Assembly: GCA_002371135.1 (NCBI GenBank)
Contig: DFGB01000027.1
Span: forward strand, 1-60,270
From: Verrucomicrobia bacterium UBA3761
GTDB taxonomy: Bacteria; Verrucomicrobiota; Kiritimatiellia; RFP12; UBA1067
Direction: 5' to 3'
DNA length: 60,270 bases
The notes beneath the pieces are model-generated. The model ran no database searches and was not told where the DNA came from. It saw only the letters and a list, made by a program, of their open reading frames with translations. Shown one piece after another: positions 1,675-52,475 of the stretch (within the stretch, counting starts at the first letter, position 1; every line of letters begins with the position of its first letter). Both the position numbers and the translations under genes were made by a program.

Positions 1675-1703
1675 TTGAAATTGCGTTGACAAAATGCGAT
1701 AAT
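1675..1703 (+). promoter_or_regulatory. Sigma70-type promoter (TTGAAA-17 nt-TGcGATAAT)
   Basis: -35 TTGAAA at 1675-1680, a 17-nt spacer, and an extended -10 with TG at 1695-1696 and GATAAT at 1698-1703. Confidence 0.55.
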
Positions 1704-1709
1704 ATGGGC

Positions 1710-1799
1710 GCATTAAGGCTCAAAAGTGTGTCTCCTCCTACCACAGGCCTCCGGCGCTGGGACGCCGGCGCGTGGCCCCGGCGCGACGGGGCGTTTTTT
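1710..1799 (+). ncRNA. Candidate ~90-nt short transcript (promoter to terminator) upstream of the late operon
   Basis: The predicted start is ~7 nt after the -10 box. There are two hairpins: CCGGCG/CGCCGG at 1751-1768 and GCCCCG/CGGGGC at 1775-1792. The second is followed by a T-run. No plausible ORF. Confidence 0.3.
1775..1799 (+). terminator. Intrinsic terminator
   Basis: GCCCCG-GCGCGA-CGGGGC followed by GTTTTTT. Confidence 0.55.
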
Positions 1800-1800
1800 A

Positions 1801-2111
1801 GGGAAGAGGGAAGAGGGAAGAGGGAAGTAGAAAGTAGGAAGTAGAAAGTAGGAAGTAGGAAGTAGGAAGTAGAAAGTAGGAAGTAGGAAGTAGGAAGTAG
1901 GAAGTAGAAAGTAGGAAGTAGGAAGAGGTTGTTTAATGTTGCCATTGTGAAAATGTTGCCAGTTCCAATGTTGCCAATTTCCAATTGGGAACAGGGAAGA
2001 GGGAAGAGGGAAAAGCCTAGGAAACTCTGCGACTCTGCGGCTCTGCGATAAAAATAGGGAATAGGGAAGAGGGAAGAGAATTTTCGATTTTCGATTTTTC
2101 GATTTACGATT
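1801..2111. repeat. Patchwork of at least five different short tandem repeats
   Basis: (GGGAAGA)n at 1801-1826, 1993-2013 and 2054-2078. (GTAGRAAG) about 12 copies at 1824-1925. AATGTTGCCA x3 at 1935-1976. GGAAA(CTCTGCGN)x3 ATAAAAA at 2020-2054. (TTTTCGA)x4 at 2080-2111. Confidence 0.95.
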
Positions 2112-2123: not shown

Positions 2124-2423
2124 ATGCCGGAATTGATACCACCTGCCAGGAATGCGGGCAAATGCCCCAGAGAAGACAACTGCTTCGCCGTCTTGCTCGC
2201 CAAGGACGAGGCCGCCGGCGCCGTCACCGCCGAACGTATCTGGCGCGAAAAATACGAGGCCATGGCCCCGCTCTCGAACGAGCTCTACCTCGCCGCGCGC
2301 TTTTTCGTCTCGCTCGAAGCGACGGCGCCTCTCGCCTCGCGCAAGGCCGCCCTCGAACGTCTCCAGGCCGCCGTGCGCGCCGTAGCCGATTTCGCCAAGA
2401 AAAACAAAACAAACAACCAATAA
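2124..2423 (+). CDS. Hypothetical phage protein (99 aa)
   Basis: First ORF of the high-GC late block. Its codon bias is consistent with its neighbours. The overlapping ORFs in other frames are Arg-rich artefacts. Confidence 0.55.
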
Positions 2424-2756: not shown

Positions 2757-3188
2757 ATGCAAATTAAAATCGCAACAATTGCGGCAGCGCTTGCGCTCGC
2801 GATTTGCGGAGGCGGATGCGCGCTCGAGCGCGCCGATCCCGCCGCCCGCTCCAACCGCGCAACCTACACAATCACAGTCTCGCGTTGCGACAACTCGACC
2901 GTCACAGCCTACGTGACGGACGGCATTATGGCGACGGCGGACGGCGAGGGCGCGATAACGCAGCCCTCGACCCAGACGACGCGCCAAGACCCGGAATTCG
3001 CCGGCGCCGATCCCGTCACGGCCGGCATCAATGCAGCGGACCATCTCGGCGGCAAGGCGATTGACGCGTACGCCGGCAAATCGTCCGATGCCAAGAGCGG
3101 CGGCGAGTGCAGCGGCGGAGAGTGCAGCGGCGGAGAGTGCGCCGACGGCAGCTGCAGCGACTGCCCCGGCGGCGAGTGCAGCGACTAG
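2757..3188 (+). CDS. Secreted protein or lipoprotein with C-terminal GGECS repeats
   Basis: N-terminal signal MQIKIATIAAALALAICGGGC with a lipobox-like LAIC. Three 15-bp repeats encode GGECS near the C-terminus. Confidence 0.6.
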   Translation: MQIKIATIAAALALAICGGGCALERADPAARSNRATYTITVSRCDNSTVTAYVTDGIMATADGEGAITQPSTQTTRQDPEFAGADPVTAGINAADHLGGKAIDAYAGKSSDAKSGGECSGGECSGGECADGSCSDCPGGECSD

Positions 3189-3780: not shown

Positions 3781-4370
3781 TGGAAACGAAGACCAGATGC
3801 GACGCGTGGGGCGCGGACCTGCCCGAGAAGGTGCAATGGGACTGCTACGACCTTGCAAAGGCATTGCAATGGCCGAACGGCGTTGTTGCACAGCTTGAGG
3901 CGATCGGGATAGAGCGGCTTCCGACGCGGGCGAGCTGGTATCGCTTTTTGGCGCGCATGCGCCGCGCCGACGCCGCCCGGCGCATCGAGAAGATAGCGCA
4001 GTCCGTCGCCGAGGCCGAAGGCGTCGCCGACCGCAGCGGTATCAAGGACCATATTTTCGTCGAGACCCTGAAAGCGCTCGCGATAGACAAGGCGATGACC
4101 GGCGAGATGGACGACGCGACGCGGCTTGCCGCGGCGGCGGCGAGCATCCGCGGCGCTGCGCAACGAGACCGCGAACTCGCGCTCAAGGACGCCGCCCAGC
4201 GCACGAAGGACGAAGCGCTGCGCCTCGCTCGCGAGAAATTCGAGTTTGACGCGGCGAAACAGGCGATGGCGAAGGCCGCCGAGATAAAGAGCATCTCCGC
4301 AGACGACACCTTGGCGGCGGACGAGAAGATCGCGAAAGTGCGCGCGGCGCTGTTTGGAGTGGGCACATGA
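3780..4370 (+). CDS. Putative terminase small subunit (Mu gp27/DUF3486-like by position)
   Basis: Lies immediately upstream of the large terminase. The N-terminal part is HTH-like and the C-terminus is a long Ala/Lys/Glu-rich helix. Confidence 0.45.
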   Translation: METKTRCDAWGADLPEKVQWDCYDLAKALQWPNGVVAQLEAIGIERLPTRASWYRFLARMRRADAARRIEKIAQSVAEAEGVADRSGIKDHIFVETLKALAIDKAMTGEMDDATRLAAAAASIRGAAQRDRELALKDAAQRTKDEALRLAREKFEFDAAKQAMAKAAEIKSISADDTLAADEKIAKVRAALFGVGT

Positions 4371-4371
4371 T

Positions 4372-4433
4372 TAGCCGCAAAGAACGCATAGAACGCATAG
4401 AAACCCTTTGCGAGCTTTGCGTACTTTGCGGCT
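4372..4433. repeat. Direct and inverted 9-bp repeats between the two terminase genes
   Basis: AGAACGCAT x2 at 4381-4398. CTTTGCGNN x3 at 4406-4432. AGCCGCAAAG (4372-4381) is complementary to CTTTGCGGCT (4424-4433). Confidence 0.9.
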
Positions 4434-4451
4434 GAAAAAGAAAGGCTTGAA

Positions 4452-5927
4452 GTGGAACCGGTAATAAAATTCAGAGAGTACCAACGGCCAGTCTTCGAAG
4501 ACAACGAGACGGGCGTTTTGGTGCTGCACTGGAGCCGCCAGATCGGCAAGAGCTTCACGCTCGCCGCCTGGGCGGTCGACCGGCTTCTCACCCGTCCCGG
4601 GCGGCTCGTGACCGTTCTTTCGAACTCAAAGGACAACGGCGCGGAATTCGCGCTCAAGTGCCGCGAGGTGCTGAATCTCCTCGGCGTCGCCAAGGAGGCC
4701 GTCGGCTTCGCCGCGACCGACGACACGGTGGAGTATTCCGACATGCGCTTCGAGGTGACGGTCAAGGTCAAGGGCAAGACGGGCCGCATCAAGGTCCTCG
4801 CCGCCAACCCGCGCACGGCGCGCGGCTTCTCCGGCGACCTCATCCTGGACGAGTTCGCCTTCCACGAAGACTCGAACGCGATCTGGGAGGCGGCGGAGCC
4901 GATACTGTCGTCCAACCCCGATTTCCTCTGCCGCGTGGCGTCCACCGGCAACGGCACGTCCAACATGTTCTACCGCATGGCGACGGAGGGCTTTTTCAAG
5001 GTCTCGCGCGTTCGCCGCTCCGACGCCTGGAAGATGGGCGTCAAGATCTACGACGCGAAGACGCGAAAGCCGATCACGCCCGACGAGGCGCGTGCCCAGG
5101 CGCTCGACAAGGCCGCCTACGACCAGAACTACGAATGCGCGTTCGCCTCCGAGTCCGGGTCGCTGCTCACGCACGAGATGATCAATGCCGCAAGCCTCGG
5201 CCGCGGCGATGCCGACATCTTCGAAGACGCGCTGCCGGACGGCTATCTCGACAAGTTCCCCCTGAGCGTTTCCCTCTTTCTCGGCATGGACGTCGCGGCG
5301 ACGCATGACTACACCGTCATCGCGCTGATCCGCATCGACGGGCCGCTCATCTACGTCGTCGCCTGGGTGCGCATTCGCGGCGCGCGGCTCCCTGCGCAGA
5401 AGGCGGTGCTCCGTCCGCTGCTCGCCGACCGGCGCGTGAAGCGCGCGGCGATCGACTCCACCGGCATCGGCCTCGGCCTCGTCCAGGACATGGAGGACGA
5501 GTTCCCGGGCAAGGTCGAGGGCGTGAACTTCGCGACGACGGAGCCGATCTCGCAGCGTCTCATGGCCGAGGGGCGCAAGTCGCCGACGGCGCGCGTCACC
5601 GAGATCATGGCGACCGACCTCGCGGCGGCGCACGAGGACAAGCGCATCAGCTATCCGTGCGACGCGCCGATGCGCGACGACTTGCGCAAGCCGCACAAGG
5701 TCCGCAGCGCGTCCGGACGCGTCTCGATCGCCGCGGAGTCGACGCAGACCGGCCATGCCGACCACTTCTGGGCGCTCGCGCTCGGCTTGCGTGCGGCGGA
5801 GGGCGACGGGACATGGACCTTCGCGCCGGAGGTCGTCGAGACGGAGACGCGCGGCATCGAATTCGGCGGCGGCTCCGCCGGGCGGCTCGGCATGCGCGAC
5901 GATTTCACCTCAAGGAGGCTCGACTGA
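4452..5927 (+). CDS. Terminase large subunit
   Basis: GTG start. Walker-A-like HWSRQIGKSFT near the N-terminus. The C-terminal part is nuclease-like (GMDVAATHDYTVIAL). Size and position match. Confidence 0.9.
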   Translation: MEPVIKFREYQRPVFEDNETGVLVLHWSRQIGKSFTLAAWAVDRLLTRPGRLVTVLSNSKDNGAEFALKCREVLNLLGVAKEAVGFAATDDTVEYSDMRFEVTVKVKGKTGRIKVLAANPRTARGFSGDLILDEFAFHEDSNAIWEAAEPILSSNPDFLCRVASTGNGTSNMFYRMATEGFFKVSRVRRSDAWKMGVKIYDAKTRKPITPDEARAQALDKAAYDQNYECAFASESGSLLTHEMINAASLGRGDADIFEDALPDGYLDKFPLSVSLFLGMDVAATHDYTVIALIRIDGPLIYVVAWVRIRGARLPAQKAVLRPLLADRRVKRAAIDSTGIGLGLVQDMEDEFPGKVEGVNFATTEPISQRLMAEGRKSPTARVTEIMATDLAAAHEDKRISYPCDAPMRDDLRKPHKVRSASGRVSIAAESTQTGHADHFWALALGLRAAEGDGTWTFAPEVVETETRGIEFGGGSAGRLGMRDDFTSRRLD

Positions 5928-7531
5928 TGGCATTCGCTTTGCAAAACCTTTTCAACGCGGCTTCACGCGGGCTGCAGCGTCTCAAGTTCAACGCCTGGAC
6001 GCTTGGGCATCGCGGCGCGGAGATCTTCGAGAAGTCCGCCGAGGCGCTGCAGCTGGAGCGCATGAACCCGCTCAGGGGCATCGACGAATGGCGGCTCGGC
6101 CAAATCTTCGACGACGCCCGCGACGGCATCTACGCCGACCTCGCCTGGCTGTACAACGAGATCGAGGGCATCGAACCCGCGCTCGTCGCGTGCTGCGACA
6201 TGCGCGAAAGCGCGGCCGGCGAATGCGGCTGGCTCGTCAGGACCGCCAACGCGAACCGCTCGCGCGGCTTCGATGCGAACCTCGCCGACGAGCAGCGCGT
6301 CGCGCTCCTGGAGGAATTCGGCGCGGTCGAAGACGACCTCGCCGACGTCGCCGAACACCTCGTCTCGGCGTTCTTCCGGGGCGCGGCGCACGCGCTCCCG
6401 CTGTGGAACGCCGACGGCACGCTCGCCGGCTTCAAGCGGCTCGACCTCTGGAACATGGCTTTCGACCGGCAGGCCGGCATCTGGTACTGGAACGCCGACG
6501 CCTCGCGCGACGAGCAGACGTTCCAGGCGATTCCGCCAGGAGAAATCGTGTCGCTCGCCGTCTCGGGCTCGCGCCACGTCGACCACGCGGCGCTGCCGAT
6601 CTTCATCCGCGCCGCCCTGGGCGCGAAGCGCTACGGCGTCTGGCTCGACCGCTTCGGCATACCGCCGGTCGCCGTCATCATGCCGCCGAACGCCGAGAAA
6701 GGTGAGCAGGCGAACTACATGGATCTCGCGCGCAAGTTCTCGCGCGGCGGCAACGGCATCCTGCCGAACGGCTCCGCCGTCACGTACGGCACGGAGGCGC
6801 GCGCCGTGTGCCCGTTCCTCGACTTCATCCGCTTCCAGCAGCAGCAGATCTACACCGTCGGCATCGGACGCGTGCAGAGCGGCGACAGCCAGGGCGCGAA
6901 CCTGGGCGGGAACGCCTCGGGCGTCGTCGAAGACGGCTTCAGGCGCATCGTCCGCCGCGACGCCAGGCGCATCGCCCGCGCCATCAACGACTGCGTGACG
7001 CGCAAGGTGATCGCGCGGCGCTTCCCGGGCCGCCCCGTGCTCGCGCAGTTCGCATGGGACACCAAGGCGAAGCGCACGAGCCGCGAGGTGCTGGAGGACG
7101 CCGGGCTCGCCAGGACGGCCGGCCTCGCCATCGACTTGGACCAGGTGCAGGAGCTGACCGGCTACAAGCTCGAAAAGGCCCCCGAACCCCCCTCTCCGGC
7201 CCCCGGATTCGGCCTGAACAGCCGCCAAGACGCCAAGACCCCCTTGAAAATCGACGCAGACCCCTTGCAAATCGCTCCGGGCGATTCGGACGGGCAAGGA
7301 GAGGGGAAAGTCGAGGAAGCGCTTGCAGGGGCTCTAGAGCGCGTATTCCTGAAAAGCCTGGCCGAAGCCGCCGCCGGGGAGTTGGAGGGGGAAGGTCTCA
7401 CGCATATCCCCCGAGCGCAGCGAGCCGCGCAAGCGGTCGCTAGAGGGGTGAGGCGCCCAGAGACGGAGAACGCCGGGGAAATCACCCAGGAGCAGGCCGA
7501 GAAACTCTACGAGGAGATGATGGCGAAATGA
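5927..7531 (+). CDS. Portal protein (Mu gp29/DUF935-like)
   Basis: ATG at 5927 overlaps the terminase stop (ATGA), with AAGGAGG at 5912-5918. The ORF-track start at 5657 lies inside terL and is rejected. The product is 534 aa and follows terL. Confidence 0.85.
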   Translation: MAFALQNLFNAASRGLQRLKFNAWTLGHRGAEIFEKSAEALQLERMNPLRGIDEWRLGQIFDDARDGIYADLAWLYNEIEGIEPALVACCDMRESAAGECGWLVRTANANRSRGFDANLADEQRVALLEEFGAVEDDLADVAEHLVSAFFRGAAHALPLWNADGTLAGFKRLDLWNMAFDRQAGIWYWNADASRDEQTFQAIPPGEIVSLAVSGSRHVDHAALPIFIRAALGAKRYGVWLDRFGIPPVAVIMPPNAEKGEQANYMDLARKFSRGGNGILPNGSAVTYGTEARAVCPFLDFIRFQQQQIYTVGIGRVQSGDSQGANLGGNASGVVEDGFRRIVRRDARRIARAINDCVTRKVIARRFPGRPVLAQFAWDTKAKRTSREVLEDAGLARTAGLAIDLDQVQELTGYKLEKAPEPPSPAPGFGLNSRQDAKTPLKIDADPLQIAPGDSDGQGEGKVEEALAGALERVFLKSLAEAAAGELEGEGLTHIPRAQRAAQAVARGVRRPETENAGEITQEQAEKLYEEMMAK

Positions 7532-9087: not shown

Positions 9088-9981
9088 ATGGCATCAACAT
9101 TCGCAGGCCACGAACTCTACTCCAAGAAGGCCCTGAAGGTCCTTCCGGCGCAGCTCGCGTTCCTCGGCGCGTTCTCCACCGACATCTCCGGCGAGGTCCT
9201 CGACGATGAGTCCAAGTCCGTCGACGTGCCGCTCGTCGAGATGGACGCGGCGGGCGCGTTCAACCGCTCGTCCAACAACTTCGCGCGCCCGGCCGGCACG
9301 CCCAAGTCCGCGAAGGTGACGTTCGGCGATCCGATCATCACGGGCTTCGCCGTCACGGCCGACCAGGCGAGCAAGATCAAGCGTCAGTTCTGGGAGGGCA
9401 AGGCCGAGCTCAACATGACGTCCGTCGCCGCCTCGGCCAGCGAGTCCGTCACCAATCTCGTCACCGGCACGAACTTCGCGAAGTCCGTCACCGGCGTGGG
9501 CGCGGCGACCGCGTTCACGAAGACCGGCGTCGCGAAGATCTGCGCGGCGGTCGAGAGCGCGACGAACAAGCTGCGCGTCAAGTTCTCGACGCTCGTCCTG
9601 AGCGGGGAGTACTTCTACTACCTGCTCGCGGGCCTTGACGCGGCGGTGTACGGCGGCACCGAGGCGATACGCGGCGGAGTGATTCCGGGGCTCTTCGGCT
9701 TCCGCAAGGTGATGACGCTCCCGGGTCTCACGATCCCCGGCTTCGTCTGCGAGCCGTCGTGCATCGCGTTCGCGTCGCGCGGCTTCCGCCCGGCGGACGA
9801 CAAGCCCTACAACACCGTGCGCGAGATCAAAGAGCCGGAAAGCGGCCTCACGCTCACGCTCGTCGAGTATCCCGACGGCCCGTCCGGCGACCTCTCCGAG
9901 AGCGTCACCACGCGCATCGGCGCGGCGGTGGGCGATTCCGGCGCGCTCGTCCGCCTCGTCTCCGGCAGCACCGATTCGTAA
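9088..9981 (+). CDS. Major capsid protein
   Basis: 297 aa, directly after the protease/scaffold, with AAGGAAAGG upstream. Size is similar to Mu gpT-type capsids. Confidence 0.7.
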   Translation: MASTFAGHELYSKKALKVLPAQLAFLGAFSTDISGEVLDDESKSVDVPLVEMDAAGAFNRSSNNFARPAGTPKSAKVTFGDPIITGFAVTADQASKIKRQFWEGKAELNMTSVAASASESVTNLVTGTNFAKSVTGVGAATAFTKTGVAKICAAVESATNKLRVKFSTLVLSGEYFYYLLAGLDAAVYGGTEAIRGGVIPGLFGFRKVMTLPGLTIPGFVCEPSCIAFASRGFRPADDKPYNTVREIKEPESGLTLTLVEYPDGPSGDLSESVTTRIGAAVGDSGALVRLVSGSTDS

Positions 9982-16803: not shown

Positions 16804-17205
16804 ATGGCAGAACAACCAGCAGAGCAATATGGCATTTCTACGACCCTCTCGGGCTACGTCATCGAATCGGAGAACATCAAACACATCCCGCAGCGCGAGC
16901 AGGTGCGAAACCAGAAAAACGCAGTCACGGCGGAAATCGAGTACGACATCCGCCACGAGCTTCGCCTCACGGTGCGCGGCGCGAATGAGCCTGCAGCGAC
17001 TACGATCGATTACGACGGCCAGACGTGGATCGTCGACGACGTGGAGAAGGCTGGGTCCTACAACGGGCTCAGGCGCTACAACGTGACGGCTCACCGCACC
17101 ACCCTCTGCAACTCCGTGACGACGCTGGAGTCCGTGACGACTCCTGCGTCCGTGACGACGCAGGAGTCCGTGACGACGCAGGAGTCCGTGACGACGCAGG
17201 GGTAA
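16804..17205 (+). CDS. Putative major tail (tube) protein with C-terminal SVTT(Q/L/P)(E/A) repeats
   Basis: 133 aa, located before the chaperone and tape measure. Five 18-bp tandem repeats at 17113-17202. Confidence 0.55.
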   Translation: MAEQPAEQYGISTTLSGYVIESENIKHIPQREQVRNQKNAVTAEIEYDIRHELRLTVRGANEPAATTIDYDGQTWIVDDVEKAGSYNGLRRYNVTAHRTTLCNSVTTLESVTTPASVTTQESVTTQESVTTQG

Positions 17206-23433: not shown

Positions 23434-23550
23434 AATGAATCACTCCTCAGCGCAGAACAATCCTCGTGCCGGTCTTCGGTAGATAGACAAGTTTCGTGCC
23501 ATTGCGTACAATCGCCTTGCCGTCTGTGAGGGGTCAAGAGGGTCAGACCC

Positions 23551-23605
23551 TTGGAAACTCTGCGTCTCTCAAGTCTCTGCGATAAAAACCTATTGCATGG
23601 TAGTG
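23551..23605 (-). repeat. 55-nt interspersed element (CTCTGCG-array family), copy 1
   Basis: TTGGAAACTCTGCGTCTCTCAAGTCTCTGCGATAAAAACCTATTGCATGGTAGTG. It is 54/55 identical to 26906-26960 and lies 33 nt 3' of the stop of 23638..25077. Confidence 0.95.
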
Positions 23606-26763: not shown

Positions 26764-26960
26764 CAATAGATTTTTATCGCAGAGACTTGAGAGTCGCAGA
26801 GATTATGGATTTTGTTGGTGTTATTTCATATGCACAGCGCATAGTTCTTTCATTTTGGCTAAAGAGTGTGTTGATTTGACGTCTCATGAAAAATGCGAAA
26901 AACCCTTGGAAACTCTACGTCTCTCAAGTCTCTGCGATAAAAACCTATTGCATGGTAGTG
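26764..26960. repeat. MITE-like unit: 38-bp imperfect inverted repeats of the CTCTGCG element around a 111-bp AT-rich spacer
   Basis: Left arm CAATAGATTTTTATCGCAGAGACTTGAGAGTCGCAGAG (26764-26801). Right arm 26913-26950 has 3 mismatches. The right side is element copy 2 (26906-26960). Confidence 0.9.
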
Positions 26961-31609: not shown

Positions 31610-32376
31610 TTCGCCACCTCCTTCGGCGCGACGAACGGCCTGTACATGCATAGGCGGCCGCCGTCCACGACGTGGTTTGAGCCGGTTATGAACGAGGCGT
31701 TCTCGCTGCACATGAAGAGAATCACATCGACGAGTTCGTGCGTCTCGGCGGCTCGTCCAAGCGCCGTGGGCATGCCGCTCATCGCGGCACGGGTAAGGAC
31801 CGGACCTGGCGTCACGCAAAGGGCGCGAACGTTGTGAGGACCGCCGGCGAGGGCAAGCCCTTTCACGAAATTGAACAGCCCGCTTTTAGCCGTGCCGTAC
31901 ATCGTTCCTACGCCGTCGCCCTCAAAACCTGTCACGGAACCGAGACAGCAGATAACACCACCCTTTTTCGCCACCATCTGCGGCATCAGCGCGCGGGCGA
32001 AATAGACGGCGCCCTTCAAGTTCACGTCGAGCCCCCAGTCTATGACTTCCACCGGCTGTTCGTAGAATGGAACGTTCGACTTGCAGCATCTCGCCTCGTT
32101 GCCGCCTGCGCAGGTGACGAGAATGTCGCATCCGCCGAGCGACGCGGCTATCTTTGCGGCGGCTTCTGCGTGTGCGAACTCGCGCACGTCGCCCACGCAG
32201 GCGATACTTTTCAACTTTTCAACCTCGCGTCGAAGCTGTGCTTCGGCGCAATCGCACATCACGACCTTCGCGCCGAGACGCGCGAACTCCTGCGCCGTCA
32301 TCAGCCCCATGCCCGATGCCGCGCCGGTGACGACCGCCACCTTGCCGGTAAAATCAATATCCTTCACTCGCCGCAC
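31606..32376 (-). CDS. SDR-family oxidoreductase
   Basis: TGAASGMG Rossmann motif and the YGTAK catalytic motif. Confidence 0.9.
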   Translation of the reverse strand: MRRVKDIDFTGKVAVVTGAASGMGLMTAQEFARLGAKVVMCDCAEAQLRREVEKLKSIACVGDVREFAHAEAAAKIAASLGGCDILVTCAGGNEARCCKSNVPFYEQPVEVIDWGLDVNLKGAVYFARALMPQMVAKKGGVICCLGSVTGFEGDGVGTMYGTAKSGLFNFVKGLALAGGPHNVRALCVTPGPVLTRAAMSGMPTALGRAAETHELVDVILFMCSENASFITGSNHVVDGGRLCMYRPFVAPKEVAK

Positions 32377-33377
32377 CTCCTCATCACTTCCGCCTTTACG
32401 CCGTCATCGACTTCAAGGACTTCGAGTTTCCACTTGTACGGATCTTTCGCCTTGTCCGCGCAGACGCGCGAGACCGTCGTCTTGAAAAGCCCCTTCTCTT
32501 TGAAAAACACGAGCTGGTATCCGCGAAGGTCGCCGGGCACCGTCTGCATCAGGTTGATTGCAAGAAGATATTTTGCATACGCCGCATCGAGTTTTCCCGT
32601 TTCGTCCTTCGATTCCATGAGCCGCCAGATTTCCGCAAGCATCGGCGCAAGCGCGGCGCGTTCGGATATGACGCCCTCCGAGCCGAGACGTCGCGACTGG
32701 TAGAGCCATTGCCATCCACCCCACGCGCTGAATATTGTCTTGAGCGGAGGCCGCGCCGCAAGTTCCGCCGCCATGCGACGGTTCGCCTCGAATCCGTCGC
32801 GCACCTCCTCCTTGACCCAGCCGTATATCGCGGGATGCCGCGTCGCCAGATTCACAAGCAGTTCAACGGATGGCGCGGGGCATTTGTCGCCGTTGTATGT
32901 CTGGATTATGACGGGACGTTTCGCAACGGCGGCAAGCGCCTCGTAGTAGCGTTCCAAATCTTCTTGCGTCCGGCAGTCGTCGGCGGGGCGAGAAATGAAG
33001 ATGATGCGAGAGTCGCAACGCGCCGCAAGTTCCTCGCCATGGCGTGCGAGCGCAAGCATCTCAGCCGTGTCGCGCCCCTCGACGCCAAGGCAGAGGCGCG
33101 CGTTGAACGCCGCCGAGCGTTCGGCGAGGGCCGTCATGCCGCGCTTCTTCTCTTCGACAGTCAAAAGGTCGATGGAATCGTCGGACTGCGGCCAGATGAT
33201 GCCGTCCACGCCGGCCGCGTCCGCCCATTCGGCTTCCTTTACGAGAGATTCATAATCCACCGCGCCGTCCGCGAGATAAGGCGTCGTGAGAATCGGGTAG
33301 GCGCCACGCACGCACTCCGCCGCAAGCGCGGCGGAGCACGAAAACGCTACGGCGGCCAATGTGGCTACGATTCTCAT
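32364..33377 (-). CDS. Dihydrodipicolinate synthase/N-acetylneuraminate lyase-family aldolase with signal-like N-terminus
   Basis: YPILTTPYLADGAVDYESL and GWVKEE (Schiff-base Lys context) are typical of the DapA family. The N-terminus MRIVATLAAVAFSCSAALAAE looks like a signal peptide. Confidence 0.7.
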   Translation of the reverse strand: MRIVATLAAVAFSCSAALAAECVRGAYPILTTPYLADGAVDYESLVKEAEWADAAGVDGIIWPQSDDSIDLLTVEEKKRGMTALAERSAAFNARLCLGVEGRDTAEMLALARHGEELAARCDSRIIFISRPADDCRTQEDLERYYEALAAVAKRPVIIQTYNGDKCPAPSVELLVNLATRHPAIYGWVKEEVRDGFEANRRMAAELAARPPLKTIFSAWGGWQWLYQSRRLGSEGVISERAALAPMLAEIWRLMESKDETGKLDAAYAKYLLAINLMQTVPGDLRGYQLVFFKEKGLFKTTVSRVCADKAKDPYKWKLEVLEVDDGVKAEVMRRCGE

Positions 33378-34681
33378 TTTCGCGCCGCCTCCCTGTCGCG
33401 TTCGAAGAAGAATATCCGCGCCGCGCCGATTGCCGCCGCCCCTGCAAGCATGAATACCGAGAGCGACGCAATGCTAGTGCACATGGAAAAATGCGAGTTC
33501 ATCCAGCCCATGACGGCCGGACCGGAAGCGCCGATAACGCACCCGCCACATCCAAACACGCCAACCGCCGCCGCCCTGTGGCACGGCTTGACGACTTCGA
33601 AGAGCGATGCGTAGATGTTCGAGTCGTAAACGCCCGTCGCAAACCCGAAGAGCGCCGTTCCGGCGATGCAGAGAGAGGCCGTTGGCGCGAATGCGGAAAG
33701 AAGAAGCCCCGGCACGCACAGCACAAGCCCGGCGGCATTCACGTCGAACCTCGTCTGCGGACGATGCGCGGCGAACCGGTCGGAAACGCGCCCGCCCGCA
33801 AATACGCCGGCGACCGCGCCGAGATAGAACCAGAACACGGCATGGAACGCGGCGGACGCAGCCGTCACGGACGGGAAGCTGCGCTGGAGATACGCGACTA
33901 TCCACGTGTTAAAACCGTATTTCGCATAGAAGTAAAACCCGAGCCCCGCCATGAGCAGCAACGCCGACGGCTTGCCAAAGAAAGCGGAAAAGTCGAAAGG
34001 TTGAAAAGTGGGAAATAGAATTTTCCGGTTTTTCATTTTATCGCAGAGACGCAGAGACGCAGAGCGCGCAGAGGACTTTTCAACTTCACCCTCTTCCCTC
34101 TCTTGCAGAAGGAACACAAGAGCGACGGCCCAGAGAGCGGAAATCGCGCCGAAGAGGAAGAACGCCTTGCGCCATGCACCCGCACCAAGCCCGGAAAGCC
34201 AGCCCGAGACGCAACTCGTCACCACTATGCCGATATAGAAAACGATCTGGTAGATCGAAAACGCCGTCGCGCGCGTCTCGACGTGGTATTGGCCGATGAG
34301 CGACGAATTCGACGGCGGCAGCAACGACTGCCCGACCGCGTTCACGACCCCGTATGCGACGACGATCATGGCGACGCTCGATGCAAGGCCCGACGCGAAA
34401 ACGCCCGCGCCGAAAAGCAACGTGCCCGCGACTATCATCCACTTGCGGCTGAAAGCATCAGCCAGCGCCCCGCCGAACGGAATCGCAAGGCCGAACACGA
34501 GCGTGAATACGCTGCCGACGAGCCCGAGCTGCGCGTCGTTTACGCCCAGCGCCGCGAAATCCGCCTCGATCTGCGGCAAGACGGTATTGAATATCTGCCG
34601 CGATCCTTGCGCGAGGAAATACGTCGCGGAAAGGAGCGAGAGCAGAATCCACTTGTAGTTTCTAGACCCGGTTTTGAACAT
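33374..34681 (-). CDS. MFS transporter
   Basis: 12-TM-like hydrophobicity. MFS loop motif GALADAFSRKW. Start taken at MFKTGSRNYKW (34681), 10 nt downstream of an extended -10 box. Confidence 0.85.
   Translation of the reverse strand: MFKTGSRNYKWILLSLLSATYFLAQGSRQIFNTVLPQIEADFAALGVNDAQLGLVGSVFTLVFGLAIPFGGALADAFSRKWMIVAGTLLFGAGVFASGLASSVAMIVVAYGVVNAVGQSLLPPSNSSLIGQYHVETRATAFSIYQIVFYIGIVVTSCVSGWLSGLGAGAWRKAFFLFGAISALWAVALVFLLQEREEGEVEKSSARSASLRLCDKMKNRKILFPTFQPFDFSAFFGKPSALLLMAGLGFYFYAKYGFNTWIVAYLQRSFPSVTAASAAFHAVFWFYLGAVAGVFAGGRVSDRFAAHRPQTRFDVNAAGLVLCVPGLLLSAFAPTASLCIAGTALFGFATGVYDSNIYASLFEVVKPCHRAAAVGVFGCGGCVIGASGPAVMGWMNSHFSMCTSIASLSVFMLAGAAAIGAARIFFFERDREAARK
34030..34105 (-). repeat. CTCTGCG-array element inserted in-frame in the MFS central loop
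   Basis: The minus strand reads GAGGGAAGAGGGTGAAGTTGAAAAGTCCTCTGCGCGCTCTGCGTCTCTGCGTCTCTGCGATAAAATGAAAAA. It encodes QEREEGEVEKSSARSASLRLCDKMKN and is collinear with the intergenic element at 40191-40262. Confidence 0.85.
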
Positions 34682-34797: not shown

Positions 34798-35982
34798 ATG
34801 AAGACCCGCATACCGAACATCGTCATCGCCTCGATACTCTCGGAACCGGCCGGCCAGCGCAAGTTCGCCGGGCTTTTCTCGTATCTCGGCGCCATACACC
34901 GCTGGAATCTGCGCATTCTCCGCGCACAGGACGAAATCGTCGCGTTCTTCAAAAACGCGGAGTCCCTTTCGAAAATCGACGGCATCGTCTACTCCGGGCA
35001 CCATGACGCGAAAGTCGCAAAGGCGCTCGCCACGGCCGCATGCCCGGTCGTCGCGATGGAGATAGAATCGCCGCAGCTCGCGAAAAGAAGCAGCAACCTC
35101 ATCATCATACGCAACGACGCGGACGAAATCGCAAAGTGCGCCGTGAAGGCGTTTGCCGACTCCGGCCGCTACAGGACGTTCGCATACGTGAACGACAGAT
35201 TCCACCGCGAATGGTCGAGGCGGCGCGAAGAGGCGTTCCGCAAAGCCGTGGCGTCCAAGGGATGCGGAGAGGCGAAAATCTACGCGCCGTCCACTCTCGA
35301 CGCCGACAAAGACCTCGAGCCGCTCGCGGAGTTCCTCAGGAGACTCGAATATCCAGCCGCCGTTCTCGCAGCGAACGACATGCGCGCGACGGAAGTCATC
35401 GCGGCGGCGCAGTCTGCCGGCATCAAGGTGCCGGGCATGATTTCGATCCTCGGCATCGACAACGATCCATACATCTGCGACAGCGCGACTCCGGCGATAT
35501 CCAGCATCGAGCCCGACTTCCTCGGGGAGGGGGCGGCCGCCGCCGCGTTGCTGGACAAGATGATGAAAAGCCGCCAGCCACTCGGCAAGCGCCATGTCTT
35601 TTTCGGCGTGAGCCGCGTCGTCGTCCGCGAATCGATGCCGCACCTGCCACCCGCGCAGAGCCTCGTAGACAGGGCGAAGGATTTCATCAAAGAACACGCC
35701 GTGGACGGCATCGCGCCCGGCGATGTCGCGGCGCACCTCGGCGTATCGCGCGCCCTTCTCGACCTCAGATTCCGCCAGACTCAGAAAACCTCGGTCGGAC
35801 GGCTCATCACAGACGCAAAACTCGCCGAGGTCGCGCGGCTTCTCAAATCGACGCGCATCGCAATCGGCGCGATACCGGACCTGTGCGGCTTCAAAAACCC
35901 AAACTCCCTCAAAAACCTCTTCAAAAAACGCTTCGGCCTTTCCATGCGCGAATACAGGGAAAAAGAAGAAAGTAGGAAGTAG
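34798..35982 (+). CDS. XylR-like regulator: periplasmic-binding-protein-type sugar sensor fused to AraC-type HTH
   Basis: The N-terminal two-thirds is LacI/PBP-like (AVLAANDMRATEVIAAAQSAGIKVPGMISILGIDND). The C-terminus has an AraC HTH (GFKNPNSLKNLFKKRFGLSMREYR). It is divergent from the sugar operon. Confidence 0.8.
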   Translation: MKTRIPNIVIASILSEPAGQRKFAGLFSYLGAIHRWNLRILRAQDEIVAFFKNAESLSKIDGIVYSGHHDAKVAKALATAACPVVAMEIESPQLAKRSSNLIIIRNDADEIAKCAVKAFADSGRYRTFAYVNDRFHREWSRRREEAFRKAVASKGCGEAKIYAPSTLDADKDLEPLAEFLRRLEYPAAVLAANDMRATEVIAAAQSAGIKVPGMISILGIDNDPYICDSATPAISSIEPDFLGEGAAAAALLDKMMKSRQPLGKRHVFFGVSRVVVRESMPHLPPAQSLVDRAKDFIKEHAVDGIAPGDVAAHLGVSRALLDLRFRQTQKTSVGRLITDAKLAEVARLLKSTRIAIGAIPDLCGFKNPNSLKNLFKKRFGLSMREYREKEESRK

Positions 35983-36102
35983 AAAGTAGAAAGTAGGAGA
36001 TTTGCCGCCTGGGCGGGTCGTACGTTCTATCTCCTACTTCCTATCTCCTACTTCCTACTTTCTACTTTCTACTTCCTACTTTCTACTTCCTATCTCCTAC
36101 TT
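35966..36102. repeat. Inverted arrays of the 8-bp GTAGGAAG/GTAGAAAG repeat (long hairpin)
   Basis: Forward array at 35966-36001 and reverse array (CTTCCTAC/TTTCTAC units) at 36029-36102, around a 27-nt loop. The regulator's stop codon (35980-35982) lies inside the forward array. Confidence 0.9.
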
Positions 36103-36120
36103 GCGCTCTGCGCAGAGCGC
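36103..36120. promoter_or_regulatory. Perfect 18-bp palindrome abutting the -35 box (candidate operator)
   Basis: GCGCTCTGCGCAGAGCGC lies 1 nt upstream of the TTGCGC -35 box. It contains CTCTGCG and its complement. Confidence 0.45.
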
Positions 36121-36121: not shown

Positions 36122-36150
36122 TTGCGCGAAGCGGCCGGAAATGCTATAAT
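36122..36150 (+). promoter_or_regulatory. Promoter TTGCGC-17 nt-TGcTATAAT (leaderless GH2 gene)
   Basis: -10 at 36145-36150. The ATG at 36157 is 6 nt downstream. No SD. Confidence 0.55.
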
Positions 36151-36156
36151 ACCGCC

Positions 36157-39100
36157 ATGAAAACGATTTATTCCATACTTGCCGCGCTTGTACTTGCCGC
36201 GGCGTCTCCCATCCCCGCCGCCGGAGAAAGCTTTTCTCTCGACGGCGAGTGGCTCTTCAGTTTCCAGGGCGGAGAGGAGCGCGCGATAAACGTTCCCTCG
36301 TGCCTGGAACTGCAAGGCGCAGGGACGCTCCGCTATGGCGAAAACGGCGCGAACGAGTCCGCCCGCTACCGGCGCACGTTCACGATACCGTCCGGCTGGC
36401 CGGAGGACGACCTCGTCATGCTCCGTTTCGACGGCGTGATGTTCGGCGCGCAAGCGACAGTGAACGGCCGGGACGCGGGCGCGTTCCGTTCGTCGTTCAA
36501 CCGCAACGAACTTGACATCACCTCGCTCGTCCGCCGCGACGCAGAGAACGAACTTGTCGTGGAAACATTGAAAAATCCGAAGGGGTGGGGGTTCGACTGC
36601 AACGACGACTGGGTTCTCCACGGCATCTTCCGCAGCGTCACGCTCATCTCGCGCCCGAGGCTCAACGTAGCCGACCTCTCGCTCGCCTGCAAGGTCGATG
36701 CGGACGCTCAAAGCGCGGAGGTCGAGATTTCCGCCGCCGCATCGGACGGCGCGAGCGCGGTGCGTCTGAAGCTTCTCGATGCAGACGGCAAGACCGTCCT
36801 CGAAGGCGACGCCCCGCTCAAGGGCAGGGTGGAGAGAGCGAAGCTCTGGACGTGCGAAACGCCATATCTCTACACGCTCGCAGCGGAAGTCGGGTGCGAC
36901 CGTGTCGAAAAGCGCGTAGGTCTGCGCGAAATCACGCGCGATGGCGCGGTGTTGAAGCTGAACGGACGTCCCGTAAAGCTGCACGGCGTCAACCATCACG
37001 ATCTCTGTCCCTGCCACGGACGCGCCATCACAATCGACGAGCTGCGGCGCGACGCCCAGCTCATCAAGGACGGAAACTTCAACTGCGTCCGTCTCGCGCA
37101 CTATCCGCCGAACGAGGCGTTCCTTGATCTATGCGACGAACTGGGGCTTTACGCAATAGACGAGGTGCCGTTCGGAATGGGCGCGAAGAACCTGCGCAAT
37201 GCGGACTATCTTGAAGTTCTGGAAGAGCGCGCGCGTCTCACCGTTGCACGCGACAAGCTGCATCCGAGCGTGATTGCTTGGACGATCGGCAACGAGAATC
37301 CGCTCACGGACATCTGTGTAAAATGCGGCGATCTTGTCGCGCAGCTCGATCCGACACGCCCGACGTGCTATCCGCAGTATTCGAGCGTCTATCAGAAGAT
37401 GCTGGACGACGGTGCGCCGCAGAGCGCGATGCTCTACGACTTCCACTACGTTGACGCAGCGAAGATTCGCGAACTTGCGCCGCGCCTTGACCGTCCGCTT
37501 TTCGCGGGAGAGTTCGCGCACGCGCTCGGGCTCGACTTCGGCTCGCTCGCCGAAACGTGGGAGGAGATGTGGTCGCGGCCCGAATGCGCGGGCGGATGCA
37601 TCTGGATGTTCCAGGACCAAGGCTTGGAGCGTCCGGCGTCGGCGGTGAAGGAAAAAGACCGCAAGTTCCTCGCATGGAAAGACGAAAAGACCGTCTGGGA
37701 CACGCACGGCATCGACGGCTGCGACGGCATCGTCTATTCCGACCGGACGCCGCAAGTCGATTACTTCGCGGCGCGCGCAGTCTTCGCGCCGGTCAGGATT
37801 GCCTTCGACGGGAAGCAGACGCTGACGATTGAAAACCGATATGACTTTACCAATCTGTCCGAAACGAAGATCAGTTGGGCGGTGGTCGGTCAAGCTCATG
37901 TCGGCTGCGTGCCGCTCTGCTGCCTGTCGTCACTCGGTGGCGGGAATATCGAAGCTGCCGTGGCGCCGCATGAAAAGGCGGCGTTCAAAATCCGCCTCCC
38001 GGCAATCCCGCAAAATGTGAGGGTTGCGAGTCTGTCTGCAATGGTCAAGGGAAAGGACGGCGAAATCGTCGCTGCCAAGGCGTGGCCGCTCAAGGTTGAC
38101 GTAAAGGCCACGCCGGATGGGACGATGCCGCCGCTCGTTTTCGAACCACGCTGGGACAGGCGTGAGATGATGTCGAAATCGGCGGCGCATCTGCCGAATA
38201 AAAACAAGAACAAATATTCGATTCTCGAAAAGCCGGCAGGATTCGCCGCGGACGTCAAGGAGGAGCCCCTTGGCGACGGTTCGCTGCATGTCGCCTACTC
38301 AATTTCCGCGACGCAGGAATGGCACACTGTCGAGGCCGGTCTTTCGTTCACGCTGCCGGAAGAGTTCACGACTGTTCGCTGGGTCGGTCAGGGTCAGTTC
38401 GAGGCATACACTCTCAGCAACGCGCAGAGCATGTTCGGATGGTTCGCGCTCGACAAGGACGATCTGTATTTCCCCGGCAACCGCCGCGATGTTCGCTGGC
38501 TTGCCGCTTTGCGGGACGATGGCACAGGCGTTGTGCTGATCCCTGACGGCGGCTCGGGCGATGTGGCGTTCGAGAATATCGGCGGGAGAATCCGCATCAG
38601 CCACAACGCCGCGCTTGCCGACAAGTTCAACAAGTACGAATGGCCGCGCGATGTCAAGACCTTCGCCCCCGGCGAGAGTCTGGAGAGCGGCTTCACGCTT
38701 GCACCAGTGAAGCTCAAGGCGGGCGTCGCGCCGCCTTTCCGCCCGTTCTTCAAATCCTACGACGACGGCAATGCGACGGCTGCGCCGAAAGCCGCTCCCT
38801 CGCCTTGCGAAAAGGCGCTCAGAGAGGGGTTCGCCAATCCGCCCTCGGACGTGAAGATCGGCTGCTACTACTACTGGGTGAACGAACGCGTCGACGAGGA
38901 AGGTGTGAAGAAGGACCTTAAGTGGATGAAGGAGAACGGCATCACCCGCGCCTTTCTCGCGACGGACATCCGCAACCGTACGCGGTTCGAGAATCCATGG
39001 GAAGGCCAGGAGTTCGGCGACTGCGCGTTCAGGAGCGAGAAGTGGTGGCGATGCCTGCGCACGGCGTTCAAGACGGCGGGCGAACTCGGAATCGAGATGG

Positions 39101-40038: not shown

Positions 40039-40050
40039 AAATAATTTTGC

Positions 40051-40107
40051 CACTGTCATGCAATAGTTTTTAACACAGAGGCACTCAAGACACAGAGTTT
40101 CCAGAGG
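40051..40107 (+). repeat. Diverged copy of the 55-nt element with CACAGAG units
   Basis: CACTGTCATGCAATAGTTTTTAACACAGAGGCACTCAAGACACAGAGTTTCCAGAGG. It is collinear with the reverse complement of 23551-23605 and starts 12 nt after the GH2 stop. Confidence 0.85.
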
Positions 40108-40136
40108 ATTTTCGCAATTATCATGAATAAGTGAAT

Positions 40137-40280
40137 TTTTTCGATTGCTGCAAGCCTTCCATTTTAACACAGAGGCACAGAGACACAGAGATTCACAGAG
40201 TGAAAAGTTGAAAATTCTCTGTGCTCCTCTGTGTCTCTGTGCCTCTGTGTTAAAATGGAAGGCTTGCAGCAATCGAAAAA
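40137..40280. repeat. Perfect 54-bp inverted repeat (extendable to ~61 bp) with a 36-nt loop
   Basis: 40137-40190 (TTTTTCGATTGCTGCAAGCCTTCCATTTTAACACAGAGGCACAGAGACACAGAG) is the exact reverse complement of 40227-40280. CACAGAG (40194-40200) and CTCTGTG (40217-40223) in the loop also pair. Confidence 0.97.
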
Positions 40281-40311
40281 TCGCAAAATCCTTCCCTTTT
40301 CCCCTCCCCTC

Positions 40312-40341
40312 TTGACCCATTGCCGCCATAAATGGTATACT
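40312..40341 (+). promoter_or_regulatory. Promoter TTGACC-18 nt-TGgTATACT (leaderless CotH-like gene)
   Basis: -35 at 40312-40317 and -10 at 40336-40341. The ATG at 40348 is 6 nt downstream. Confidence 0.5.
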
Positions 40342-40347
40342 TGTGGC

Positions 40348-49095: not shown

Positions 49096-49125
49096 ATTAT
49101 ATCATATTCCCGCCCCCGGGGTCAA
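49096..49125 (-). promoter_or_regulatory. carB promoter TTGACC-18 nt-TGaTATAAT with ~80-nt leader
   Basis: On the minus strand the -35 is at 49125-49120 and the -10 at 49101-49096, with TG at 49104-49103. Confidence 0.5.
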
Positions 49126-49151
49126 TGTGGAAATGTGGAAATGTGGAAATG
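49125..49151. repeat. (ATGTGGAA) x3 tandem repeat directly upstream of the carB -35 box
   Basis: AATGTGGAAATGTGGAAATGTGGAAATG. Confidence 0.9.
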
Positions 49152-50091: not shown

Positions 50092-51345
50092 TTAAAGGTT
50101 AGCGCCCGAAAACTCGGAACGGAAGCGATACTTGCCCTTGCCACGCCCTTTCATGGTATCAAGAAGACGATGGCGAAGCATCGTCCTTATTAACATTCCC
50201 GCAGGCCCATCTGCCAACCCACAAACTTTCATGACCAGCGCACGACCGAAAACCTCCACATCGCTAAACTCATTATAAAGTTTCATTATGTTGGCATAGG
50301 TCGGGCGAGTCAACTTAAGCCCCGACAAGGCCTCTTCAATCGGCTGTTTTCGGGACCCAATCGGCTGTTTTCCCGCTCCAATCGGCTGTTTTCCCGCTCC
50401 AATCGGCTGTTTTCCTGTCTCAATATGCGGGTTTTCGTCCCCAATAGGCTTTTTTTCAAACGGGAAACGAATGGAATCCAGCTTTTTCAGCGAAACGGAT
50501 ATGACAAAGTTGTTGCCCTCGATGAAGACAGGATCAGCCCCGCCATAGTCCTTACTGTATTTGTAAAGATTGCGGACGCCCGAGCCGAGGCGGTCCGCAC
50601 GGCCGATTTCCCGGAAGAACCCTGCGATGATGGGATTCTTCGCACGCGGGCGAACATTCTCCGGCGTCACCCGTCCGTCCTGCATGGGATTACATGGATT
50701 CGACGTGTACATCCGGTCTCGTTCAATGACAAACTCTGACTTGTCCAAGCTTGTGAACTCGCGATGAATCAGAATGTTTGCCACCATCTCTCGGACGATT
50801 ATCTCACGTAGATTCAACCGCTTGTCCTCCTCAAGGAAGAAAGGCGCTGGCAGGTGCTTGCGCGAAAACTCCAAAAGCTCGTCGTAGCTTTCGAGCAGAT
50901 TTGTCCGAACGATGCGCCGATCATCGTAGCGATCGACATTCACGACGCGCAACAGCGCATCCGTCTCGTACTGCGGACAGATACGCATCAACGTCTCGTC
51001 CTTCCCCAAGAGCAGCACCGCCGCCAAGTTAAAGCCCGTCTCCTTTGTTACCTTGTCTTCGTCAATCAGTCCCGACGCACGGAAAAGCGCCTCGTCGTCC
51101 ATATCCATCCACGGATGTCGCTTGCCATCCGTCAAATGATTCTGCGCTTCCCGACGCACAAGCGGCAACATGTCCAAGCGAAAATCATCAAGCTTCAGTT
51201 GCGGGAACACCTCGCGCTCGGTGTAGATGCCCTTCTTGCGCATGTAGAGATCGGCGATCTGAGCCGTCGCCCTGATTTTCACGTCCACCTCGCCCATGCG
51301 GTCGTAGATGTCGCCGTGGTAGGAGTGAACATCGCCGCTGACCAG
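50092..51345 (-). pseudogene. 5'-truncated AlbA_2 / HATPase_c_4 transcriptional-regulator-like gene
   Basis: Carries the end of an AlbA_2 domain (HSYHGDIYDRMGEVDVKIRATAQIADLY), an ATPase-like core (REMVANILIHREF...NPIIAGFFREIGRADRLGSGVRN) and a C-terminal wHTH-like part. The first ~80-90 aa are missing. It contains four 21-bp repeats (KQPIGAG). Confidence 0.65.
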
Positions 51346-52432: not shown

Positions 52433-52475
52433 ATCATTTATCTCAGATCTCCTTTAGTCATGGCTTGTTGCCAAA

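Follow-up and report, generated by a model that had tools for sequence, protein, structure and literature searches.

Dispersed arrays of heptamers have been known since about 1990 and include the short tandemly repeated repetitive (STRR) sequences of heterocystous cyanobacteria, with their units STRR1 to STRR3. To our knowledge, the spread of one unit to many loci and the function of such arrays are so far unexplained. Here, we analyze a patch of short tandem repeats at positions 1800 to 2111 of a 60,270-nucleotide stretch of DNA from Verrucomicrobia bacterium UBA3761 (contig DFGB01000027.1, positions 1 to 60,270; referred to here as "the window"), located just upstream of the structural genes of a Mu-like prophage. 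The patch is a local case of a known kind of repeat and not a new class. On balance, we favor reading it as an untranslated leader that has become overgrown with short tandem repeats of a clade-specific kind and with small repeat modules, and that is tolerated where it stands.

Long simple sequence repeats, as defined by Mrazek (2007) in the summary given by PMC4679880, are dispersed tandem repeats with units of 5 to 11 nt, heptamers foremost. In Beggiatoaceae, Cyanobacteria, and Bacteroidetes, TAACTGA repeats are often mixed with other heptamers and differ between strains in 7-nt steps; their arrays are intergenic, often just upstream of start codons, and patchy in their phylogenetic distribution (MacGregor 2015, PMC4679880). 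The GGGNATC repeats of Xanthomonas and Nostoc form G-quadruplexes and prefer four units (Rehm 2015, PMC4692102). A preliminary description of the window, made from its letters alone, knew of no described element class to match the patch, but all four of these (long simple sequence repeats, TAACTGA repeats, GGGNATC repeats, and STRR sequences) match it in kind. Literature searches with the unit strings returned nothing relevant, and no open-access text was found that links Kiritimatiellae with tandem or intergenic repeats.

Repeat blocks and their setting

The left 22 kb of the window is the Mu-like prophage, with a large terminase, Portal_Mu, and a Mu-like protease. A contig that extends leftwards (L002) carries its early region, including DUF3164, an AAA_22 ATPase, a 707-aa protein, and an HTH_3 repressor-like gene. 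The patch lies within an 859-bp non-coding gap (1265-2124) that also contains two terminator-like hairpins, and it ends 13 nt before the ATG of the next open reading frame (ORF). The promoter-like site, the hairpin, the blocks of the patch (called with Tandem Repeats Finder [TRF] where so marked), and the first downstream ORF are as follows.

1675-1703, plus strand: sigma-70-type promoter-like site TTGAAA-17-(TG)GATAAT (TGcGATAAT), reading toward the patch; 10/12 consensus matches plus TG
1775-1799, plus strand: terminator-like GC hairpin GCCCCGGCGCGACGGGGC followed by T6, from a terminator scan; the next base is the start of the patch
1800-1827, plus strand: AGGGAAG, 4.0 copies (GGGAAGA x4), TRF; canonical G-quadruplex motif at 1801-1824
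1823-1925, plus strand: GGAAGTA (= GTAGRAA), 14.7 copies, period 7, TRF; single orientation, TAG in every frame
1912-1992, plus strand: composite module of the GTAGGAA array end, three copies of TGTTGCCA, and CCAATTGGG; one arm and the center of a palindromic element
1935-1979: three copies of AATGTTGCCA, at 1935, 1952, and 1967, spaced 17 and 15 nt
1987-2012, plus strand: GGGAAGA, 3.7 copies, TRF; second G-quadruplex motif at 1987-2010
2011-2055, plus strand: dispersed element, here called element C, AAAAGCCTAGGAAA-(CTCTGCGN)x3-ATAAAAA; six-copy alignment with five host-side loci
2024-2048: ACTCTGCG, 3.1 copies, TRF
2053-2078, plus strand: AGGGAAK, 3.3 copies, i.e., (A/G)GGGAA(T/G)A, the GGGAAGA array continued, TRF
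2080-2111, plus strand: TTTTCGA(T), 4.4 copies, TRF; weak host match at 40271-40287 (minus strand)
2124-2423, plus strand: first ORF after the patch, 99 aa, at the head of the operon leading to the terminase, portal, and protease genes

Tandem arrays fill 270 of the 312 nt of 1800-2111, compared to a mean of 6 nt and a maximum of 44 nt in 100 dinucleotide-preserving shuffles. The repeat blocks of the preliminary description are thus real, lie where it placed them, and are far above chance, although several of its details were wrong. It gave the long array as about 12 copies of an 8-nt unit, GTAGRAAG, where the unit is the 7-nt GTAGRAA in about 14.7 copies. AATGTTGCCA, listed there as a tandem repeat, does not run head-to-tail; the blocks proper, with periods of 7 to 8 nt and 3 to 14.7 copies, are tandem arrays of a 5- to 11-nt unit beyond chance, and the spaced AATGTTGCCA is not. 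Units of the GGGAAGA type form three separate blocks, at the start, in the middle, and near the end of the patch, with other modules between them. Rather than "five unrelated microsatellites," the patch is better read as one GGGAAGA leader array broken by modules that have homologues elsewhere. The TTTTCGA unit also builds arrays in a related phage (L131).

All of the purine-rich units of the patch (~25) have the same orientation, the sense strand includes a C-free run of 142 nt, and TAG or other stops close all three plus-strand frames. The predicted fold is no better than those of shuffles (z score, +0.82 for 1800-2123), with approximately the first 130 nt unpaired in the centroid structure, and no terminal inverted repeats of the patch were found. 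Two of the window's five canonical G-quadruplex motifs fall in the patch, each with exactly four G3 tracts, and its third GGGAAKA block has three G3 tracts only. Motifs resembling a Shine-Dalgarno (SD) sequence are frequent (7 GAGG and 11 AGGA). Rfam searches over the window gave nothing at gathering thresholds and, in 1200-2200, only sub-threshold generic hairpins, none of them meaningful in the repeat blocks; PHROGs gave no match for the small ORFs around the patch.

Two long antisense ORFs (1607-2263 and 1713-2426) span the patch, and arrays close to read length can mis-assemble; still, we find it hardly credible that the patch is minus-strand coding sequence or an assembly artefact. The antisense ORFs have no Pfam match and overlap the 99-aa gene in antisense, and they stay open only because TTCCTAC and TCTTCCC contain no stop. 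The identical sequence recurs in separate assembly records, the irregular A/G pattern in GTAGRAA gives unique k-mers, and arrays of the same kind are present in many independent assemblies. The patch is non-coding, and the preliminary description, in which it was not obviously coding, was right on this point. It was also right to set the patch apart from clustered regularly interspaced short palindromic repeats (CRISPR), whose repeats of 23 to 50 nt alternate with unique spacers of similar length while the units here measure 7 to 10 nt and are contiguous, and, given the fold, from the palindromes of repetitive extragenic palindromic sequences and bacterial interspersed mosaic elements (REP/BIME).

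Judged from the sequence, the patch would lie inside the 5' untranslated region of a predicted transcript that starts at the promoter-like site and passes the hairpin. The arrangement of a near-consensus promoter, then, ~70 nt on, a conserved GC hairpin and T-run before the structural operon recalls the PR'-tR' antitermination module of phage lambda. In lambda-type late control, the PR' promoter gives a short terminated transcript and then the late genes; Mu-type phages normally use Mor/C activators, and a lambda-like antitermination arrangement would be unusual for a Mu-like phage. Upstream of the promoter, the gap contains an inverted repeat of 25 nt, which is perfect (1421-1474), and a pair of 83-bp direct repeats (1481-1650). 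Each direct repeat includes the palindrome GGGCTAATAAATCAATTTGATTGATTTAGCCC and TTTAGCCC 9-mers, and these sequences resemble binding sites for phage-specific regulators.

A sister phage with a short leader

The 99-aa protein has a single relative, P0002 (73% identity), encoded at the same position in a sister phage (L360) and carried by many contigs that stem from other samples. L360 has a near-identical promoter block, almost base for base, and an identical GC hairpin; the flanking non-coding DNA has diverged, and the T-run after the hairpin is broken (TCTTCT). From hairpin to ATG, however, its leader has only ~58 nt of purine-rich sequence, in which TRF detects a degenerate AGGGGAA array (6.1 copies, 75% matches), compared to 325 nt in the window phage. 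Because promoter and hairpin are kept and the leader is short, we read the patch as a lineage-specific enlargement of a purine-rich heptamer leader. A scan of viral contigs for the conserved promoter block gave 0 matches.

The sister phage also carries part of the patch elsewhere. Positions 1912-1989 (AGGAAGTAGGAAG...TGTTGCCA...CCAATTGGG) align to the reverse complement of L360 at ~9100-9200 with a score of 77, compared to 14.6 +/- 2.4 for shuffles, and the L360 sequence is the palindromic element in full, located where the called terminase ORF begins. The same composite module thus occupies a different site, in the opposite orientation, in the sister phage. Approximately 35 first codons of that called ORF (L360 9088-9200) are translated repeat module (MSIANVKISNSNTNTQLGIGNIGIGNTGNNGNTSYF); the true terminase start is probably downstream of the module, with the repeats inflating the ORF call.

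The main rival to a tolerated, overgrown leader is a functional one: acting in cis, the leader would tune how the structural-gene transcript is translated or what becomes of the RNA, serving as a platform for ribosome standby or sequestration, an RNA G-quadruplex switch after the terminator, or a C-poor anti-Rho leader. It draws on the purine-rich heptamer leader at the same place in the sister phage and on the GAGG and AGGA motifs, the predicted lack of structure, and the C-free run of the patch. The two four-tract G-quadruplex motifs fit the four-unit preference of GGGNATC repeats (PMC4692102), and TAACTGA heptamers before start codons have been proposed as translational regulator sites (PMC4679880). 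However, neither length nor sequence is conserved between the two leaders, which are built of different units; the CTCTGCG and TGTTGCCA modules, copies of which occur in unrelated settings, lack both purine-richness and likeness to an SD sequence; and the SD-like arrays lie 50 to 320 nt from the start codon, with only weakly SD-like sequence directly before the ATG. We consider a role of this kind in structural-operon expression unlikely, though it is the strongest competitor.

Several other differences between the two phages lie in the same non-coding region. The inverted repeat upstream of the promoter keeps its outer bases in L360 (TATTCAAG...CTTGAATA) with a different interior, and TGCCTTG-type repeats (L360 5678-5800) stand in place of the window's direct repeats. 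Just past a terminator in this region, the sister phage encodes a group II intron reverse transcriptase (RVT_1 and GIIM; L360 4205-5605), which is also present on L361-L363, L366, and L368. A group II intron reverse transcriptase occurs on a related host contig as well (L372, 7114-8478).

To survey related phages, we examined 80 loci found through terminase. Their non-overlapping arrays, with a modal length of 31 nt, have mainly period 7 (204 arrays), followed by periods 9 (71), 8 (43), and 6 (24). Many of these phages contain 10 to 20 arrays each, use a few units of their own, and often place them as inverted pairs in inter-gene gaps; one gap in L180 folds at z = -4.0. An array lies within 150 nt upstream of terminase in 10 of the 43 closer relatives, compared to 6.4% expected, and the window phage is arranged likewise:

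4376-4430, plus strand: prophage intergenic hairpin of the 9-mers CGCATAGAA / CTTTGCGNA, just upstream of terminase; z = -8.6 (4368-4436)

This pre-terminase hairpin is 81% identical to a CGCAAAGAA/CTTTGCG hairpin that lies between carA and pyrG in a related host genome (L370).

Copies in the host part of the window

Over the whole window, arrays of period 6 to 10 occupy 14.9% of the bases outside coding sequence, compared to 0.35% of those within it; without the phage gap, the non-coding share is 8.5%. The arrays are thus strongly non-coding, with in-frame exceptions in a major facilitator superfamily (MFS) transporter and a short-chain dehydrogenase. Genes of the host part encode, among others, glycoside hydrolases, carB, NAD synthase, and the MFS transporter, whose closest named relatives are from Kiritimatiellae; the host is probably of ruminant-gut origin. 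The host-side features that share words with the patch or with related genomes are as follows.

23549-23605, plus strand: element C copy adjoining the 3' end of a minus-strand gene
26767-26960, between two genes: two inverted element C copies (26770-26801, minus strand; 26899-26943, plus strand) flanking ~100 nt
32206-32223, minus strand: GTTGAAAA-type array in-frame in the short-chain dehydrogenase gene; copy number differs from that of a 98%-identical relative
33975-34105, minus strand: word cluster (GGGAAGAGGG, GTTGAAAAGT, CTCTGCG x4, ATAAAA...), in-frame, in the central loop of the MFS transporter
35962-36102: hairpin of AAGTAGR x5, a GC-rich center, and YCTACTT x10; its first arm and the stop codon of an AraC-type regulator gene overlap; z = -9.7 (35958-36105)
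40046-40318: cluster of a CTCTGTG variant of element C, a hairpin, AATCGAAA x2.5, and a minus-strand G-quadruplex motif
49124-49151, plus strand: AATGTGGA x3.5, upstream of carB; the word is also present in L370 and L372

Prophage and host share repeat words, as the preliminary description proposed. The GTAGRAA array of the patch matches both arms of the host hairpin near 36.0 kb, at 35963-35998 (plus strand) and 36021-36102 (minus strand), with E values down to 1e-23. Element C, with the motif AAAAsCCTwGGAAA-CTCTGCG-N-CTCTGCGATAAAAA, matches four host sites (23549 and 26899 on the plus strand, 26801 and 34064 on the minus strand) in addition to the CTCTGTG variant at 40046-40110 (minus strand), and three of the host copies stand directly after a stop codon in the same relative orientation.

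The further proposal that each block type recurs in host intergenic regions holds for only some of the blocks. In the host part of the window, non-coding enrichment was found for GTAGAAA (5/7 hits non-coding, p = 2e-5), GTAGGAA (3/7, p = 0.008), CTCTGCG (8/20, p = 2e-5), and its one-base variant CTCTGTG (10/11, p = 2e-11), but not for GGGAAGA (0/5), TTTTCGA (2/17), or TGTTGCCA (1/1). Among the individual loci named, the one at 34.05 kb is not intergenic but an in-frame part of the MFS transporter gene (33374-34681, minus strand), and those at 44.6-44.7 and 45.75 kb hold only one or two degenerate copies.

Host arrays are mostly inverted-array hairpins. Host and prophage examples fold at z scores from -8.6 to -17, the extreme being a 123-nt perfect hairpin of CACAGAGR / CTCTGTG arrays at 40148-40270 (z = -17), so that the host copies show the stem-loop feature of REP/BIME elements and the patch does not. 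At 36130-36157 and 40330-40348, TATAAT or TATACT boxes of host genes stand only 6 nt before the ATG, with no SD sequence; this suggests leaderless mRNAs in the host, by contrast with several phage genes that have a clear SD sequence.

Between the window and L371, the 98%-identical short-chain dehydrogenases differ by a 5-aa insertion/deletion, VEKLN, inside the GTTGAAAA array, which directly shows that copy number can change among closely related genomes. In the MFS transporter loop, three genomes have three wholly different segments between conserved flanks, one of them a pure GAGGGAA array. Such a change in the copy number of a related array is also what speaks for a phase-variation (contingency) switch, in which slippage in the patch would toggle structural-gene expression. 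Contingency loci have their repeats inside an ORF or between the -35 and -10 elements. In the patch, however, the arrays come after the -10 element and occupy the stretch from the terminator-like hairpin to the ATG, so that slippage would leave promoter spacing and reading frame unaltered, and neither the three contigs of this phage nor the ten of the sister phage, probably single strains, differ in length. We judge such a switch to be very unlikely.

A clade-specific vocabulary

The repeat words are not confined to the window. They recur on the related Kiritimatiellae contigs L370, L371, and L372, including GAGGGAA x7.3, the CGCAAAGAA/CTTTGCG hairpin, AATGTGGA hairpins, and GTTGAAAA arrays. 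In a census of word dimers, these were present in those 28 kb of related DNA and almost never in ~2 Mb of other fetched DNA, so the vocabulary is clade-specific; the more distant relatives L373 and L374 have fewer arrays and different units. Recurrence was thus found within the window for GTAGRAA and CTCTGCG and in related genomes for GGGAAGA, AATGTGGA, GTTGAAAA, and CGCAAAGAA. A metagenome scan with the element C pattern GGAAACTCTGCG N9-10 CTCTGCGATAAAA gave 0 matches in a collection from which the host is absent.

On L370, inverted arrays of 8- to 9-mers also lie inside called genes (863-942, 1711-1777, 2986-3102, 5130-5207, and 6838-6868). The genes concerned encode a GATase_6 protein, carA, CTP synthase, and carB, and the arrays are apparently translated in-frame, for example, as NPVNPV peptides in carB.

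Beyond the clade, a scan of a genome collection placed AAGTAGR arrays at more than 119 loci in many phyla, often inverted between genes. We rejected AAGTAGR as a universal motif: its permuted unit AGAATGR is at least as frequent in viral contigs (38 versus 23 loci), and the other words of the patch do not co-occur with it. Since a composition-matched permuted heptamer is at least as common, AAGTAGR is not special and heptamer arrays are generally common; one heptamer unit can arise more than once. At some of these loci, AAGTAGR forms inverted pairs around 40- to 230-nt spacers, tight between genes (L020 2862-3160, L048 4328-4453, L052 42-135, and L056 1323-1495), the same architecture as that of the 36.0-kb host hairpin. 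They belong to Verrucomicrobiae, a metagenome-assembled genome (MAG) labelled Heliobacteriaceae, and Acidobacteria, and some MAGs have many. The GTAG within GTAGRAA was considered as a signature like that of REP elements and their REP-associated tyrosine transposases (RAYTs) and was dropped, as related phages use units that lack GTAG and no RAYT was found in the window.

A conserved factor could maintain the same words at many loci in the host, related genomes, and their phages, and each phage uses its small vocabulary at several gaps. On these grounds, the arrays might be binding sites for a host or phage DNA- or RNA-binding protein, such as a nucleoid protein, a word-specific factor to which the host copies are also known targets, or one acting at a transposition or replication accessory site. 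We think this quite improbable: the words differ widely between related phages, the permuted heptamer is at least as common as AAGTAGR in viral contigs, no candidate protein was identified, and a 7-nt period is unlike the helical phasing of iterons.

Interpretation

According to the reading we favor, the ancestral state would be the ~58 nt of degenerate, purine-rich, AGGGGAA-like heptamers from hairpin to start codon. In the window phage, an array of the GGGAAGA type would have expanded and been interrupted by small repeat modules: the GTAGRAA array with the TGTTGCCA/CCAATTGGG half-palindrome, the 45-nt element C, and the TTTTCGA array. In the clade at large, words of 7 to 9 nt would fill nearly every permissive stretch, be it an intergenic gap, a flexible protein loop, or a phage non-coding region. 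They would usually pair as inverted arrays into long hairpins and so act like REP/BIME-type elements at gene 3' ends. We infer that the words multiply locally by slipped-strand mispairing and that they pass from one site to another, also from host to resident prophage or back, via recombination or mobility like that of miniature inverted-repeat transposable elements (MITEs). The leader would tolerate them because it is non-coding, and with only the purine-rich, C-poor strand kept, it would be unstructured and closed in three frames. The patch is thus probably tolerated and not required.

Several results weigh against this reading. No transposase or RAYT-like gene was found in the 60-kb window, and no empty and filled site pairs with target duplications were found for any module; for the unit at 26767-26960, with its inverted arms of ~32 nt, neither duplications nor empty sites were definable. 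The patch shows no length variation, as L002, L003, and L004 are all identical to the window, and the ten sister-phage contigs are likewise identical to each other, each set probably representing one strain. The promoter and terminator are themselves predictions. Finally, the purine-richness conserved in the sister phage, the G-quadruplex motifs, and the SD-like motifs could mean a functional leader.

A different account would have Kiritimatiellae and their Mu-like phages share a dedicated mechanism that writes or moves 7- to 9-nt words, in which case the patch would be a functional, host-matched control region. Candidates for such a mechanism would be a hairpin-specific transposase or a templated repeat-adding enzyme, which would put inverted-array hairpins into nearly all permissive sites, from gene 3' ends and protein loops to phage leaders; a phage would adopt host words since a host factor reads them, for example, in termination or RNA processing. 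This seems to us rather improbable.

The pair of phages makes for a compact test case: after the same promoter and hairpin, one has a 58-nt leader and the other a 325-nt leader, and the position of the composite module differs between them. Together with the words in host hairpins and in protein loops, this argues that words spread from site to site, not arising in place alone, and that prophages resident in the host join the exchange. There are also practical consequences, as such arrays break assemblies and inflate ORF calls, the latter both in the antisense ORFs over the patch and in the N-terminal extension of the L360 terminase. Shared vocabulary might help to link phages to hosts in an uncultured clade.

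Other features of the window

Inside prophage ORFs are an 18-nt repeat (x4.9) at 17113-17200 and 15/24-nt repeats at 3096-3186, which are presumably coding because their periods are multiples of three. At the other end of the window, 50092-60243 is a low-GC island (39-45% versus ~62%) whose genes, all on the minus strand, suggest a role in defence. In it, an AAA_15/AAA_21 ATPase with an OLD-type TOPRIM domain (53533-55125) adjoins a UvrD-like helicase (52476-53525), forming a Gabija-like pair, alongside a second AAA_21 ATPase (55131-56756), an Eco57I-type methylase/ResIII fusion (56773-60243), and an HATPase_c_4 protein (50092-51297). At the island edge, a 21-nt tandem repeat, CAATCGGCTGTTTTCCCGCTC, in ~4 copies (50336-50455) is unrelated to the 7- to 9-nt words.

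Comparison with known systems

The position of the patch, though not its repeats, is analogous to the late module of lambda: a near-consensus promoter precedes a terminator-like hairpin by ~70 to 100 nt, and the structural-gene operon comes next, but no Q-like antiterminator was identified here. Host copies resemble the REP/BIME mosaics of enterobacteria and MITEs such as Correia elements or Rickettsia palindromic elements in that they are dispersed hairpin mosaics at gene 3' ends, some of them in-frame; some Rickettsia palindromic elements are likewise inserted in-frame in proteins. Unlike REP/BIME elements and MITEs, their arms are tandem 7- to 9-mers and not a fixed palindrome, no RAYT, transposase, or target duplications were found, and the patch itself is not palindromic.

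The likeness to GGGNATC repeats lies in GGGAAGA, with one G3 tract per heptamer, two blocks with four tracts, and a non-coding location between co-directional genes, specific to the transcribed strand. The unit is nevertheless a different one, it covers three of the seven blocks of the patch, and quadruplex formation is predicted here from the motif. TAACTGA repeats share the intergenic heptamer arrays mixed with other heptamers, but here the unit is different and the arrays have no tie to start codons, since many form hairpins at the 3' ends of genes; the patch lies 13 to 320 nt from its ATG.

The arrays also match long simple sequence repeats and STRR sequences, which likewise have tandem units of 7 to 9 nt with heptamers commonest, are dispersed and strongly non-coding, and mix units within an intergenic region. 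These are not STRR sequences in the strict sense, as the host proteins best match Kiritimatiellae and the units differ. Setting the window apart from both classes are its occurrence in Kiritimatiellae and Mu-like phages and its other units. What is less familiar here is the inverted-array hairpin architecture, the in-frame protein loops, and the sharing of words and modules between a clade and its Mu-like phages.

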